A stretch of DNA of 9,380 bases from a virus. Taxonomy: Duplodnaviria > Heunggongvirae > Uroviricota > Caudoviricetes. The DNA lies in IMG/VR virus record IMGVR_UViG_2563366903_000014. One strand, 5' to 3'. The notes under the pieces were generated by a model. It was given only the letters and a program-made list of their open reading frames with translations. It did not search any database and was not told where the DNA came from. This document shows positions 4,294-9,380 of the stretch, one piece after another (within the stretch, counting starts at the first letter, position 1; the number at the start of each line of letters is the position of its first letter). The translations under genes were made by a program, and so were the position numbers.

Positions 4294-4478
4294 TACTGCA
4301 CCCCATTTATTTCATGAACGGCGTGGATAATTACGCCGGATAAACCGGCTTTAGCTGATTTGTTAATTACTGTGCTGATTGCAGCCTGGACGTTTTCGGC
4401 CTTCACGTTCTGCGTGATGCCAACGGTATAGCCGCGATTATTAACAGCACGGGAAAAGACGCGGAAGGTTTTAAGCAT
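4293..4478 (-). CDS. Hypothetical protein (61 aa)
   Basis: Strong Shine-Dalgarno AGGAGGTGA 5 nt upstream of ATG at 4476-4478; first gene of the leftward operon ending in primase. Confidence 0.55.
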   Translation of the reverse strand: MLKTFRVFSRAVNNRGYTVGITQNVKAENVQAAISTVINKSAKAGLSGVIIHAVHEINGVQ

Positions 4479-5110
4479 GAGTCACCTCCTGACGGATACG
4501 GGCGACAAAAATCAGATGTGCGTGCGGCAGCTGCGCGCGTGCTTCGCGCTCAGTGGCAGCTGTAACGGTGAATATTGCAATGCTGCCTGTCAGGCACTGC
4601 ATAAAGCGCCAGACAAAGTAAGGGCGTGCAGATACAGCCATGTGAAAGGCACCTCTGACTTTGGGATTATACCCACCGCCCAAGAGGCCAATCTTGCTGG
4701 CGGTGGACTGTACGGAATTGGCCTTACTGGTGTTAGAGGAAACCAGCCTTCCCGAAGGAAGTTCCATACAGCCCACCATTGTTGAGGTGTGCGTGTGCGC
4801 CGATACAAAAAAAGACGCTGGCGCGTCGTGTATCGCCTCTAACTCCAGCGGGAGGCCAATCCCGATCCCCGTTTTATAAGGGATAGCCTCAGTATATGCC
4901 GCTTTTTTGCTTAAGTGGTCGGATGTGTTGCGAGAAAAGTTTGTGCGAAAAATACCTGCGTTTTCTTTGAAAGCACATAATAACATCACGTTATTTATGT
5001 TTATGCAGTGTGTCGCAAAGCGACCTGAATCATCACGCAAATTACAACCATAAAAAATACCTGCGCTGTGATATGAGGTACTACAGCGCACCGCTTTACG
5101 GGTACAGACA
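4479..5110. promoter_or_regulatory. Candidate divergent control region between leftward replication operon and rightward small-ORF unit (palindromes, direct repeats, hairpins)
   Basis: 13-bp palindrome TGCCTGTCAGGCA (4584-4596); hairpin CCACCGCC...GGCGGTGG (4673-4706); GGCCAAT motif three times (4686, 4854, and inverted at 4716); hairpin GACGC-tggc-GCGTC (4814-4827) preceded by A7; 13-nt direct repeat AAAAATACCTGCG (4948-4960 and 5053-5065). Specific -35/-10 hexamers could not be assigned with confidence. Confidence 0.4.
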
Positions 5111-5290
5111 ATGACCAACGAAGAATTACAGGCAATCGCATTATCCATACTTGAGCGCCAGCGCGAAAAAGCACGCCAGAAGCGAGAGTATTTGCTTAAT
5201 CCACCTCCTCTCACCAGACCAAAACGATTTGCGCTTGAAGCATTTCTGGATAAATGCCCTCGGCGGTTAATCTCGCCTAAAAACCGATAG
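5111..5290 (+). CDS. Small basic protein, paralog A (59 aa); unknown family
   Basis: ATG 5111, TAG 5288-5290; C-terminal KRFALEAFLDKCPRRLISPKNR is paralogous to the C-terminus of the next ORF; several nucleotide differences between the two copies are synonymous in this frame (gcg/gca, ctg/ctc, cct/cca, tta/cta, aac/aat, cga/cgc). Confidence 0.4.
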   Translation: MTNEELQAIALSILERQREKARQKREYLLNPPPLTRPKRFALEAFLDKCPRRLISPKNR

Positions 5291-5386
5291 CGATCCGCTT
5301 TTGCTTCTCCGACTCCATAAAGCGAATAAAAACCATCAGCGCCGTGGTGTGAGGTACTGCGTCGCTCAGCTGTACAGGAAATAAGT

Positions 5387-5665
5387 ATGGATTTATCACC
5401 AGACGATGAGAAATTTTTACGACAACTACAACACCAACTACTCATGGATGCCATTGTCGAGCAGCAAACAAAGAGCAGCCCGATAGATTCATCGCTGAAT
5501 AAAAAGGCCGCCTCCCGTTTTATTGAAAACAGGATAAGGCGCGGAAAAACATGTGACGACGAGTCAAAGGCATCGCATACAAGAGATAAAAAATTTGCAC
5601 TTGAAGAGTTTCTCAGGAAATACCCACGGCGGCTAAAAGCAACCAAAAATCGCCCGCCAGGCTGA
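5387..5665 (+). CDS. Small basic protein, paralog B (92 aa); unknown family
   Basis: AGGAAA SD 6 nt upstream of ATG 5387; C-terminal KKFALEEFLRKYPRRLKATKNR matches paralog A; conserved upstream leader motif GTG-TGAGGTACT shared with paralog A; intrinsic terminator downstream. Confidence 0.5.
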   Translation: MDLSPDDEKFLRQLQHQLLMDAIVEQQTKSSPIDSSLNKKAASRFIENRIRRGKTCDDESKASHTRDKKFALEEFLRKYPRRLKATKNRPPG

Positions 5666-5731
5666 TAGCATTGTCCACCAGCTACACTCATGGCATAGTT
5701 GGTGATGCGCTTGATTTCCTTTATCTCCACT

Positions 5732-5762
5732 GGCGACCCTTCCATGGTCGCCTTTGTTTTGC
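5732..5762 (+). terminator. Rho-independent terminator for the rightward small-ORF unit
   Basis: Perfect 7-bp GC-rich stem GGCGACC / GGTCGCC (5732-5738 / 5746-5752) with 7-nt loop, followed by TTTGTTTTG on the plus strand; sits between convergent genes. Confidence 0.55.
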
Positions 5763-5765
5763 CTG

Positions 5766-5978
5766 TCATTCCTGCATCATGCGGATATTCGCGCCGTACA
5801 GGGCCGCCAGCGCGATAATTTGATAAAACCTCCCCAAGTATTGCTTAACGTGTTTCATGCGCTCAGCGGCGAAATGGCTCACGATATGGCGCATGTAATC
5901 AGCATGGTTGATGTTCAGTAGTGCGAACTTATCCGCCGTGTCGATGTACCGGACGGCAGGTTTGAGGATGTCAGGCAT
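5766..5978 (-). CDS. Hypothetical protein (about 70 aa), last gene of the alpA-rha operon
   Basis: ATG at 5976-5978 lies 2 nt upstream of the rha stop codon (ATGCCTGA); alternative GTG start at 5984. Confidence 0.45.
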   Translation of the reverse strand: MPDILKPAVRYIDTADKFALLNINHADYMRHIVSHFAAERMKHVKQYLGRFYQIIALAALYGANIRMMQE

Positions 5979-7280: not shown

Positions 7281-7484
7281 TTACGCGGCGTTGTTGCGAG
7301 AAGCATCAATACGCTGGTTAATCCATTCGTCGACTTCACTTTCAATAAAAGCCACGGAGCGGGGACCAATTTTTACCGGTTTAGGGAAGCGCCCCAGGCT
7401 GATCAGGCGATAAATCCATGCGCGACCGTAACCAGTACGGCGCATAACCTCAGAAAGACGGATGAATGAATTGTTATTAGCCAT
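7281..7484 (-). CDS. alpA: AlpA/Vis-family transcriptional regulator (prophage CP4-57 regulatory protein family)
   Basis: 67 aa; IRLSEVMRRTGYGRAWIYRLISLGRFPKPVKIGPRSVAFIESEVDEWINQRI resembles E. coli AlpA; AAGGAG SD 8 nt upstream of ATG 7482-7484. Confidence 0.85.
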   Translation of the reverse strand: MANNNSFIRLSEVMRRTGYGRAWIYRLISLGRFPKPVKIGPRSVAFIESEVDEWINQRIDASRNNAA

Positions 7485-7559
7485 TTATCAATCTCCTTAA
7501 TGTTGACGCGGAAATCCCCTCCTGTGGCTTAGCAAGAGTTTTATTTGCGTCAAATTACG

Positions 7560-7597
7560 AACACGACAAAAACCACAACATGAAAACATGTTGTGGT
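7560..7597 (-). terminator. Candidate rho-independent terminator (minus strand) or operator palindrome upstream of alpA
   Basis: Perfect 10-bp inverted repeat CCACAACATG-aaaa-CATGTTGTGG (7573-7596); on the minus strand it is followed by TTTTTGTCGTGTT. Confidence 0.45.
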
Positions 7598-8126
7598 ATT
7601 GCATAAGATAAATTCAGATTGTTTGGTTGGTATGCTCCAGCAAGGTAGAGCTATTCCCGCTTTCGGCGGGGTCACACGATTAGGCGTGACGTCCAGTAGT
7701 TTTAAAGAGCGCTTTTTCAGTACATGGTGGACGGACAAGAGAGCAATTGCGCTTTGTCAGCGCCGTAGATTCATATTTGAATCGTTGTATGTTTCCCGAT
7801 AGCAAATCTATCGGTCACTGCGGGACGAACCATCCCGCCGCATCAATGTTAAAGATCAACAGCACTTTGCCAGCGCTCCACCGCCTCATGGATGAATCAT
7901 TACATGCTTTGTAATAGTGCATGTATCACCATTCTTTCCTGCATCAGGAAAGCACTAAAGGCTGTTAAAGAGCATCCAGCTTTTCAGCTGCGTAGAAAAC
8001 TCAATCTTCGTTGTTACAAAGAGCGCCCATACATGACGGATAACTGCGTGAAAAACCCTCTGTAAGAATGTTAGCTGTAGCTTTCCGTGTACGTTAGCAT
8101 ACATCTGTATACTTGTCCAGTCGTTT

Positions 8127-9341
8127 TTATGCACATACACTAAACTTGCCGTGCACCACGTTTCCGCCCTGTTCCAGTGAGTCCATATAGTCGGCGTACC
8201 ACTGGAGCATCTCCCGCCGTCCGTCCAGATATTGCGCGTGATTGTATGTGCCACGGATCGAGTTTTTATCGACGTGCGCCAGCTGCGTTTCTATCCACGC
8301 GGAGTTATAACCCTGCTCATGCAAAATTGTACTCATGGTATGCCGGAACCCATGACCAGTAACGCGCCCAGCATAGCCAATACGACGAATAAGCACGTTC
8401 ATCGCCATTTCACTCATCGGTTTACTGTGCTGTATTCGACCAGGGAAAATAAACGGATACTGCCCCGTCATGTGTTTCAGTTGTTCCAGAATAGCAATCG
8501 CCTGTTCTGAAAGCGGCACGCAATGAGGACGGCGCATTTTCATTCGTTCTTTCGGCACTTCCCACAGACGATTATCAAAATCAATCTCCTGCCACTCTGC
8601 CTGCCGCAATTCACCCGGACGGAGTCCTGTAAGAATCAACAATCGCATACCCAGCTTGACGATCTGGCTTCCGGTGTACGTATTAAAAACGCGGAAAAAT
8701 TCCGGTAGCTCATCAACTTTCAGATACGCGTAATGCTCTTTTTTGTGTGGTGCAAATGCGCTTGCCAGATCAGGAGCGGGGTTATATTCAGCGCGTCCGG
8801 TAATTATTGCGTACCGAAACACTTCGCCACATCGCTGGCGAACCTTACGCAATTTTTCAGTTGCGCCACGGTCATTAAGACGGGATAGAACCGCGAGCAA
8901 TTCCATCGGCTTAATCTCTGCGATGGGCCTACCTCCAATGTACGGAAAAACGTCTTTTTCAAACGTCTCTATCATTTCCTCTGCATATGAGGGAGACCAT
9001 CGGTCCAGGCGTTTTTCATACCACTCACGGGCGATCACCTCAAAGGTGTTACCGCATTTGTTCGCCTGTTCTCGCTTTTGGGCCTTTCTGACCTCACTCG
9101 GATTAACTCCACCAGCGATAAGCCTTTTGGCTTCATCCCTTGCCGTCCTGGCATCAGAAAGGGACACCTCAGGATAGACACCCAGCGACAACATTTTGGG
9201 CTTGCCTGCAAACCTGTATCGCAATCGCCAGCCCTTCGAACCGTTCGGCTCAATGAGTAACGAAAGCCCGTTGCCGTCATTGAGTGTATAGGCTTTCTCT
9301 TTTGGCTTCGCGCGGCGGATAGCAAGGTCTGAAAGCAACAT
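8127..9341 (-). CDS. int: Tyrosine recombinase / P4-family integrase
   Basis: N-terminus MLLSDLAIRRAKPKEKAYTLNDGNGLSLLIEPNGSKGWRLRY matches the P4/CP4-57 integrase N-terminal pattern; C-terminal catalytic motifs HGFRHT and RGTYNHAQY. ORF is open to the window edge (alternative ATG at 9378-9380), so the true start may be 9341 or lie further upstream. Confidence 0.88.
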   Translation of the reverse strand: MLLSDLAIRRAKPKEKAYTLNDGNGLSLLIEPNGSKGWRLRYRFAGKPKMLSLGVYPEVSLSDARTARDEAKRLIAGGVNPSEVRKAQKREQANKCGNTFEVIAREWYEKRLDRWSPSYAEEMIETFEKDVFPYIGGRPIAEIKPMELLAVLSRLNDRGATEKLRKVRQRCGEVFRYAIITGRAEYNPAPDLASAFAPHKKEHYAYLKVDELPEFFRVFNTYTGSQIVKLGMRLLILTGLRPGELRQAEWQEIDFDNRLWEVPKERMKMRRPHCVPLSEQAIAILEQLKHMTGQYPFIFPGRIQHSKPMSEMAMNVLIRRIGYAGRVTGHGFRHTMSTILHEQGYNSAWIETQLAHVDKNSIRGTYNHAQYLDGRREMLQWYADYMDSLEQGGNVVHGKFSVCA

Positions 9342-9380
9342 GTGTATAGCCCCCAAAAAACGATTTTGTCCTATACGCAT

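Follow-up and report, generated by a model that had tools for sequence, protein, structure and literature searches.

A candidate multi-specificity array of nut sites between int and alpA in a Gram-negative phage satellite

Introduction

Gram-negative phage-inducible chromosomal islands (PICIs), a kind of satellite, have the gene order int, spacer, alpA, Rha and primase (PMC6092414). In AlpA-controlled islands such as EcCICFT073 (PMC6092414) and EcCIMP1 (PMC11773190), int and alpA run in the same direction, AlpA is the activator, also of its own expression, and alpA transcription is switched on by the helper phage, not by the SOS response. How these islands detect a helper has been an open question since their description: in 2018 the inducer's identification was described as "now under study" (PMC6092414), and the 2025 paper on EcCIMP1 names none (PMC11773190). 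Here, we analyse the spacer between int and alpA in a 9,380-nucleotide stretch of a Caudoviricetes record, IMGVR_UViG_2563366903_000014 (the whole stretch is called the window). We put at about 0.7 the probability that this spacer is an untranslated alpA leader in which a multi-specificity array of nut sites makes alpA dependent on antitermination by helper N proteins. The array was probably copied from the nut sites of lambdoid phages, or mimics them, and it ends in a strong intrinsic terminator.

Antitermination by N at nut sites is itself textbook; its use in trans by a satellite, in the form of a multi-specificity array, appears to be new. Literature searches whose coverage left out most subscription journals turned up no publication that connects alpA of PICIs with N, nut or boxB.

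Helper induction and packaging have been shown experimentally for EcCIMP1, an island of E. coli MP1. Its alpA-lux reporter, spanning -449 to +50, is strongly induced upon induction of the helper Kapi1, stays uninduced when a non-lysogen is given mitomycin C, and without alpA still responds at a lower level; neither N nor antitermination is mentioned in that paper (PMC11773190). Other satellites have solved the same problem by different means. The "polygamous" Stl of Staphylococcus aureus pathogenicity islands keeps the satellite silent until an early helper product is detected and accepts several unrelated helper types (PMC6695447), as the array would. However, the sensor in that case is a protein, a repressor to which phage proteins bind, whereas the sensor here would consist of RNA hairpins recognised by a phage antiterminator, and its breadth would come from added modules instead of one protein with several binding surfaces. 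Helper-embedded PICIs, in the late genes of their helpers, also tie their expression to transcription of the helper prophage (PMC10111431, which does not mention nut sites), but they do so in cis, from within the late operon, whereas the satellite studied here would act in trans by mimicking early nut sites.

Results

The spacer covers positions 7485-8126 (642 bp), bounded by the ATG of alpA (7484) and the stop codon of int (8127-8129); both genes, like all genes in that part of the window, are on the minus strand. A preliminary description of this DNA had noted in the spacer a palindrome, CCACAACATG-aaaa-CATGTTGTGG (7573-7596), and three hairpins, GCGCT..AGCGC (7749-7763), CCGATAG-caaat-CTATCGG (7796-7814) and GCGGGA-cgaacca-TCCCGC (7820-7838). 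All four are present at these positions. What it had not noted is that the elements are sensible only on the minus strand, where they are accompanied by four to five boxA motifs, further hairpins (7990-7977, 7952-7934, 7877-7861, 7690-7671 and 7670-7656) and a 13-nt palindrome (7555-7543). Read in the direction of transcription, the features are the following:

8127-9380, minus strand: int, tyrosine integrase open reading frame (ORF; Pfam Phage_int_M, Phage_integrase and Arm-DNA-bind_3)
8091-8119, minus strand: weak candidate sigma-70 promoter (TGGACA-N17-TAACGT) closely following the stop codon of int, with 3/6 matches in the -10 hexamer
7977-8025, minus strand: nut module 1, Stx2-phage nutR type, with boxA CGCTCTTTGTAACAA (8025-8011), a 20-nt dyad spacer ending CTACG (8010-7991) and a GAAA-loop boxB CAGCUGAAAAGCUG (7990-7977)
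7962-7974, minus strand: boxA 2, TGCTCTTTAACAG, near the rrn boxA consensus
7934-7952, minus strand: hairpin H3, CUUUCCUG-AUG-CAGGAAAG, present in longer arrays only
7846-7877, minus strand: nut module 3, a P22-type boxB variant AGCGCUGGCAAAGUGCU (7877-7861; loop GGCAA, one G.U pair) then a boxA-like motif TGATCTTTAACAT (7858-7846)
7820-7838 and 7796-7814, minus strand: hairpins H1 (GCGGGA-UGGUUCG-UCCCGC) and H2 (CCGAUAG-AUUUG-CUAUCGG), an optional cassette of the array
7733-7793, minus strand: nut module 4, a 48-nt copy of an H-19B/933W-type nutL (7793-7746) with a boxA-like motif TTGCTCTCTTGTCC (7746-7733)
7700-7723, minus strand: decayed lambda-type boxB GUACUGAAAAAGCGC (7723-7709) overlapping boxA 5, CGCTCTTTAAAA (7711-7700)
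7671-7690, minus strand: hairpin D, GUCACGC-CUAAUC-GUGUGAC, phi21-type boxB-like, with a 7-bp stem, 9 nt after boxA 5
7656-7670, minus strand: hairpin E, CCCGC-CGAAA-GCGGG, resembling the P22 nutR boxB CCGC-CGACAAC-GCGG
7634-7651, minus strand: weak hairpin F, GCUCUA-CCUUGC-UGGAGC, all 6/6 pairs invariant in the alignment, fold not significant
7566-7597, minus strand: intrinsic terminator ACCACAACAUG-UUUU-CAUGUUGUGGU followed by UUUUUGU, containing the palindrome at 7573-7596
7543-7555, minus strand: palindrome ATTTG-acg-CAAAT (ATTTGacgCAAAT), overlapping a -35-like TTGACG
7281-7498, minus strand: alpA, coding sequence 7484-7281 (67 amino acids; Pfam Phage_AlpA, E = 2.4e-20), with ribosome-binding site AAGGAG at 7498-7493

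The first hairpin of the preliminary description belongs to module 4. This module consists of the spacer dyad GATTC..GAATC and the boxB GCGCUGACAAAGCGC (7763-7749), identical at 15/15 positions to the P22 nutL boxB and to a hairpin of phage HK106 annotated as "nutL, boxB". About 370 E. coli genomes and at least 85 phage records share the 48-nt stretch (7793-7746) at 96-98% identity; in those prophages and phage records that were inspected, its place is the gap preceding the N gene (H-19B/933W/HK106-type). Each structure was folded as minus-strand RNA and compared with 200 shuffles, and the hairpin at 7749-7763 reached -8.5 kcal/mol (z = -3.7; 0/200 shuffles).

The boxA of module 1 agrees at 15/15 positions with the cro-cII gap, the position of nutR, in both VT2-Sakai and a lambdoid CFT073 prophage. 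The spacer of both phage nutR sites also ends CTACG and is followed by the boxB core GCTGAAAAGC, so that the window reads CGCTCTTTGTAACAA, a dyad ending CTACG and CAGCTGAAAAGCTG where the two phage gaps read CGCTCTTTGTAACAA, a dyad ending CTACG and TCGCTGAAAAGCGA; the boxB at 7990-7977 (-7.0 kcal/mol, z = -3.5) has the core GCUGAAAAGC in common with the Stx2-phage nutR. The nutL of the CFT073 prophage follows the same plan as its nutR. Next along the transcript, boxA 2 follows a hairpin and matches 12/13 positions of UGCUCUUUAACAA, which we take to be the rrn boxA consensus. Module 3 (-8.0 kcal/mol, z = -1.9) forms the direct repeat D1 with module 4, and relatives read GCGCTGACAAAGCGC-AATT-GCTCTTTAACA at its position.

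The lambda-type elements of the window are degenerate. A first lambda-type boxB, known from relatives, is missing; the second, which in relatives is the exact lambda nutR boxB GCCCTGAAAAAGGGC at 7723-7709, has decayed to GUACUGAAAAAGCGC and lost its fold (-0.4 versus -7.9 kcal/mol). Hairpin D has the layout of a phi21-type nutL (boxA, 9 nt, 7-bp stem, CUAAYN hexaloop). In HK629 and Kapi1 this nutL reads GCTCTTTAACA-9 nt-TCTCAAC[CTAACC]GTTGAGA, and the loops of the corresponding nutR are CUAACC in Kapi1 and CUAACA in HK629. The link to phi21 was found by fetching phages with phi21-type N through an N peptide, not by BLAST. Hairpins D and E together (7656-7690) fold at -18.8 kcal/mol (z = -3.2), H3 at -9.7 kcal/mol (z = -3.7), and H1 with H2 (7796-7838) at -24.3 kcal/mol (z = -3.7; 0/200 shuffles fold as well). 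BLAST against phages with 7792-7850 and 7640-7735 gave chance matches only, with no phage source for H1, H2 or E.

We searched for CGCUCUUUA, or a close variant, as boxA on the transcribed strand. The minus strand of the spacer has four strict matches and a looser one, along with three genuine N-type boxB hairpins; the plus strand of the spacer has neither a boxA match nor an N-type boxB hairpin, and the other 8.7 kb of the window have 0 boxA matches and a single hairpin match. None of 2000 dinucleotide shuffles reached the boxA or boxB counts. The distance from boxA to boxB is a 20-nt dyad in module 1, as in the Stx2-phage nutR, and 9 nt between boxA 5 and hairpin D, as in phi21; in module 4, about 80 nt separate the hairpin from the closest boxA upstream, and another boxA follows the hairpin after 3 nt. 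The sequence identities to nut elements, their strand and order, the terminator, and the conservation and modularity of the array (see below) are direct observations.

The terminator has an 11-bp stem with 5 G-C pairs and a 4-nt loop, lies 82 nt upstream of the alpA ATG, and folds at -18.4 kcal/mol (z = -5.2), which 0/200 shuffles equal. Of the two roles proposed earlier for the palindrome, that of a minus-strand intrinsic terminator is thus borne out by the stem, the UUUU loop, the UUUUUGU tail and the pairing kept in relatives. In the second haplotype the stem stays paired through two changes, a compensatory one (C-G to U-A) and an A-U to G.U exchange; relatives show only G-C to G.U exchanges in hairpin D, and a C-G to U-A change in hairpin E that was read directly from the alignment. 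On the opposite strand a G.U pair would turn into a C.A mismatch, and these substitutions therefore point modestly to selection acting on the minus-strand RNA.

Upstream, no terminator was seen between the int stop codon and the array. We regard 8091-8119 as a candidate promoter from its sequence: in relatives the homologous site (TGGACA-17-TAAAGT) and a second site (TTGATA-16-TACTAT) pass the promoter scan, and the EcCIMP1 reporter fragment, which necessarily has its own promoter, covers the homologous spacer. Downstream, the palindrome at 7555-7543 lies between the terminator and the ribosome-binding site of alpA and is conserved in all relatives; speculatively, it is a candidate site for AlpA autoregulation or a second promoter.

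The array was compared in 18 related spacers of 391-651 bp from E. coli chromosomes and IMG/VR contigs. All 18 have two to five units of a boxB-type hairpin and boxA, followed by D, E, the terminator and alpA. The shortest array consists of a lambda-like boxB, boxA, a P22-type boxB, boxA, D, E and the terminator; the longest has in addition a GAAA-type boxB, second copies of the P22-type and lambda boxB, and H1-H3. Both the exact lambda nutR boxB GCCCTGAAAAAGGGC and the GGAGA variant GCCCTGGAGAAGGGC, one loop base off the lambda nutL boxB, occur in several arrays (the lambda sequences were verified). H1 and H2 occur in long arrays and are absent from L009 and L011-L014. The terminator is kept in relatives; the hairpins at 7796-7838 are an optional module and match no phage sequence. 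From identity bands, we estimate that arrays are present in about 300 of 5,426 complete E. coli genomes.

EcCIMP1, whose locus we took from the MP1 chromosome, belongs to the same family. It is integrated at tRNA-Thr next to proA, its AlpA (WP_000035054.1) is the same protein as in the tRNA-Thr relatives L002-L014, and the order along its spacer of 427 bp is lambda-like boxB, boxA, GAAA-type boxB, boxA, P22-type boxB, boxA, D, E and terminator. Given its limits, the published reporter therefore includes this entire spacer. In the helper Kapi1, the "hypothetical protein" Kapi1_020 (L107 3483-3788) is preceded by a phi21-type nutL, and the phage also has a phi21-type nutR. Kapi1_020 matches at 100% the residues that we take to be the arginine-rich motif of phi21 N. 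Because of this match and the upstream nutL, we identify it from sequence as the phi21-type N antiterminator of Kapi1. Another N gene has escaped annotation elsewhere: in an O157:H7 933W-type prophage a 127-amino-acid N gene (L004 2455-2838) is not annotated in RefSeq, which over its 3' end calls only a 69-nt pseudogene, "regulator, incomplete".

Among 22 inspected loci of AlpA homologues from other species, mostly Enterobacterales, 21 have no boxA motif upstream; they serve as a negative control and added nothing to the covariation data. The exception is Proteus myxofaciens, with a promoter and a boxA/boxB array upstream of its AlpA homologue (L030 1770-1950, 2434-2462): a TTGACT-16-TACTAT promoter, GTTCTTTAACA with GCGCUGAAAAAGUGC, GTTCTTTAACAA with a dyad and CGCUGAUAAAGCG, and then TGCTCTTTGACAA. 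Just before alpA we read by eye a hairpin with a U-tract, which the scan did not flag. The sequence has no obvious similarity to the E. coli array, and we regard it, from these features, as an independent case. In E. coli CFT073, the int-alpA spacer of EcCICFT073 (L017 4661-5025), the most thoroughly studied PICI of this species, has only CACTCTTAAAAAT, similar to the boxA of lambda nutL plus flank, and AACAAC-like repeats in runs. Its AlpA is a different allele, and the island probably senses its helper differently. The published data on induction of EcCICFT073 by lambda and phi80 were considered as support and set aside, this island having no array.

Discussion

We propose that the array works as follows. 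Transcription would enter the leader from the weak promoter just after int, or as read-through from int. When no phage is present, it would halt at the terminator (7597-7566), and the master activator AlpA would not be made. When a lambdoid helper enters lytic growth, its N would bind the cognate boxB on the nascent leader RNA while the host factors NusA, NusB, NusE and NusG bind the boxA motifs, making RNA polymerase resistant to termination. The polymerase would then read through into alpA and the downstream genes of the island, after which AlpA would boost its own expression. How it does so is a matter for speculation: the boost might go through the palindrome ATTTGacgCAAAT, or through antitermination at the same terminator, an activity shown for a Pseudomonas AlpA (PMC7969949). 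We infer N binding, read-through and the promoter, the first two from established N/Nus biology. With several classes of boxB specificity in one array, a single island could sense several types of helper. The window's array would be expected to respond to N of the P22/H-19B/933W type and perhaps of the phi21 type; given the decay of its lambda-type boxB, no response to lambda N would be expected. For the wider satellite family, including EcCIMP1, we lean towards the view that helpers are sensed at the RNA level by captured nut sites shuffled as cassettes; on balance we also favour the corollary that any of several phage antiterminators would open the terminator and fire the satellite. The preliminary description had suggested that helper-phage signals regulate alpA at this place. 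The evidence favours this idea, for which no mechanism had been offered.

The closest models are the nut sites of lambdoid phages (lambda, P22, phi21, H-19B/933W). The satellite sites share with them 1) the boxA consensus on the transcribed strand; 2) boxB hairpins identical or nearly identical to P22/H-19B nutL, Stx2-phage nutR and, in relatives, lambda nutR; 3) the phi21-like geometry of boxA, 9 nt and hairpin; and 4) a position upstream of a terminator in the same transcription unit. They differ in being orphans: no N-like protein is encoded in the 9.4-kb window or in the annotated relatives, and N would therefore have to come in trans from the helper. They also differ in that several specificity classes occupy one leader, whereas a phage operon has one site; in the order within a unit, boxB then boxA 0-4 nt apart; and in the gated gene, the master regulator of a satellite. 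Among AlpA-controlled islands, EcCIMP1 has an array similar to that of the window, in contrast to EcCICFT073, with its other AlpA allele and no nut array.

Several observations weigh against this interpretation. In each unit boxA comes 0-4 nt after boxB, which is the order of rrn leaders and not that of lambda, and module 4 does not have the upstream boxA of the H-19B phage itself. In BLAST, module 1 matches phage nutR only weakly (E = 0.3-2), hairpin D, a predicted binding site of N, differs from the phi21 sites at loop position 5, and hairpins H1, H2, H3 and F are not accounted for by nut sites. Nothing in the window passes the promoter scan, and the covariation comes from two haplotypes of the 3' leader only. 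EcCICFT073 does without an array, and the mechanism would therefore be specific to a family, not general. Overall, the support consists of sequence inference and one published reporter of induction by a whole helper phage.

The order of the units raises the question of whether the leader is of the rrn type. Such a leader (boxB-boxA-boxC; NusB/E/G/A and SuhB) is a long untranslated RNA that needs protection from Rho, and its near-consensus boxA just after a hairpin is matched here by TGCTCTTTAACAG. Antitermination would then be independent of N, with boxA recruiting NusB/NusE (and SuhB) against Rho and the hairpins being structural, without sensing of phages. The 12/13 match of boxA 2, the boxA after each hairpin and the presence of several boxA motifs within about 330 nt fit this explanation, which we nevertheless consider unlikely: the repeated hairpins are specific to phage N, being exact P22/H-19B boxB (and lambda boxB in relatives), 48 nt are copied from a phage nutL, and the EcCIMP1 reporter is silent without a helper (PMC11773190). 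There is also an intrinsic terminator at the end of the array, and rrn-type complexes are not known to bypass such terminators efficiently. An rrn-like function could coexist with the sensing of N. A little less probable again is that the leader RNA serves as a decoy, titrating helper N with its many boxB and thus delaying or interfering with the helper, while control of alpA is incidental. Several boxB classes do lie on one transcript and PICIs interfere with their helpers (PMC6092414), but with candidate promoters as weak as these appear to be, an excess of the RNA over N is unlikely, and a terminator and alpA invariably lie directly downstream. Decoy activity is in any case compatible with a sensor.

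We give very little weight to the idea that the elements are non-functional relics of recombination with lambdoid prophages, chance pieces of immunity regions that are drifting. It would explain why similarity to phages is confined to short patches of 48 nt and about 45 nt, why one module of the window has decayed and why another has variant bases. It does not sit well with elements that all lie on one strand in strict alternation with boxA, upstream of a conserved terminator, nor with their presence in some 300 E. coli genomes (by identity bands), the layout kept by the 18 compared spacers in several module combinations, the independent Proteus array, or counts reached by no shuffle. Equally improbable, in our view, is that the spacer holds DNA operators to which AlpA or integrase binds, or that it encodes an independent small RNA or a small protein; the first two of these had been put forward in the preliminary description. 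AlpA does activate itself in EcCICFT073 and EcCIMP1, but the first hairpin is a known RNA element (the P22/H-19B nutL boxB), as other hairpins are identical to such elements, and the substitutions in relatives preserve RNA pairing, not DNA symmetry, giving G.U pairs valid only in the minus-strand RNA. For an operator, the separate palindrome at 7555-7543 is a better candidate than the one at 7573-7596 or the hairpins. Regarding a known small RNA, nothing in 7485-8126 matched at E <= 1 when the whole window was scanned with the Rfam covariance models; uninduced cells should still contain a terminated leader RNA. The case for a protein starts from RefSeq, which annotates a 129-amino-acid hypothetical protein (WP_225389441.1) antisense to the nut array in two relatives (L002 3998-4387 and L005 3048-3437, plus strand). 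This ORF has no Pfam match, is disrupted in relatives with shorter arrays and is not conserved across the spacers of 391-651 bp; it is likely a spurious gene call. Since the five other ORFs scanned in the spacer (41-99 amino acids) also have no Pfam match above threshold, we rejected a hidden gene, in agreement with the earlier remark that the spacer has no convincing ORF.

If N-dependent gating of alpA is correct, a concrete mechanism is on offer for one widespread family, and N would be the long-sought phage inducer of Gram-negative PICIs, for the satellites with arrays. This would provide the first example of orphan nut sites that serve, in trans, to detect a broad range of phages, and a new mode of eavesdropping in which the parasite of a virus copies the virus's own RNA control signals. 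The helper range of an island would become predictable from the module content of its array, and the modules would give engineers of PICI "drones" and of phage sensors a ready supply of multi-input RNA parts. Because many Stx phages carry the matching nutL, the mechanism may also bear on satellite mobilisation during the induction of Shiga-toxin phages.

Other features of the window

From the orientation of int and alpA, the primase and the tRNA-Gly site in a relative, we classify the element, of which 9.4 kb are seen, as an AlpA-type Gram-negative PICI. Pfam matches in the window are to int, alpA, Rha, Ash, DUF4222 and a D5-type primase. The closest relatives, 98.8% identical over the spacer, are E. 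coli islands adjoining tRNA-Gly (e.g., L001, with int next to tRNA-Gly) and have the gene order int, spacer, alpA, Rha, Icd/Ash-like, DUF4222, primase and SSB. In RefSeq relatives int starts at about 9341, giving a protein of 404 amino acids.

Outside the spacer, Rfam detects on the minus strand at 4696-4897 a C4 antisense RNA (4783-4696, 73.8 bits) and an isrK-like RNA (4884-4808, 52.1 bits), together with a sub-threshold C4 target site. By these matches the cluster looks like an antisense-RNA immunity module of the P1/P4 type. It lies entirely inside an "Ash/Icd-like" ORF of 432 amino acids (4471-5769), which is probably over-called because the Pfam Ash match spans only residues 292-378. At the far end of the window, a minus-strand match to group II intron D1-D4 (570-723; 67.1 bits) exceeds the gathering score of 49, and we accordingly read this end from its sequence as a group II intron or a fragment of one.

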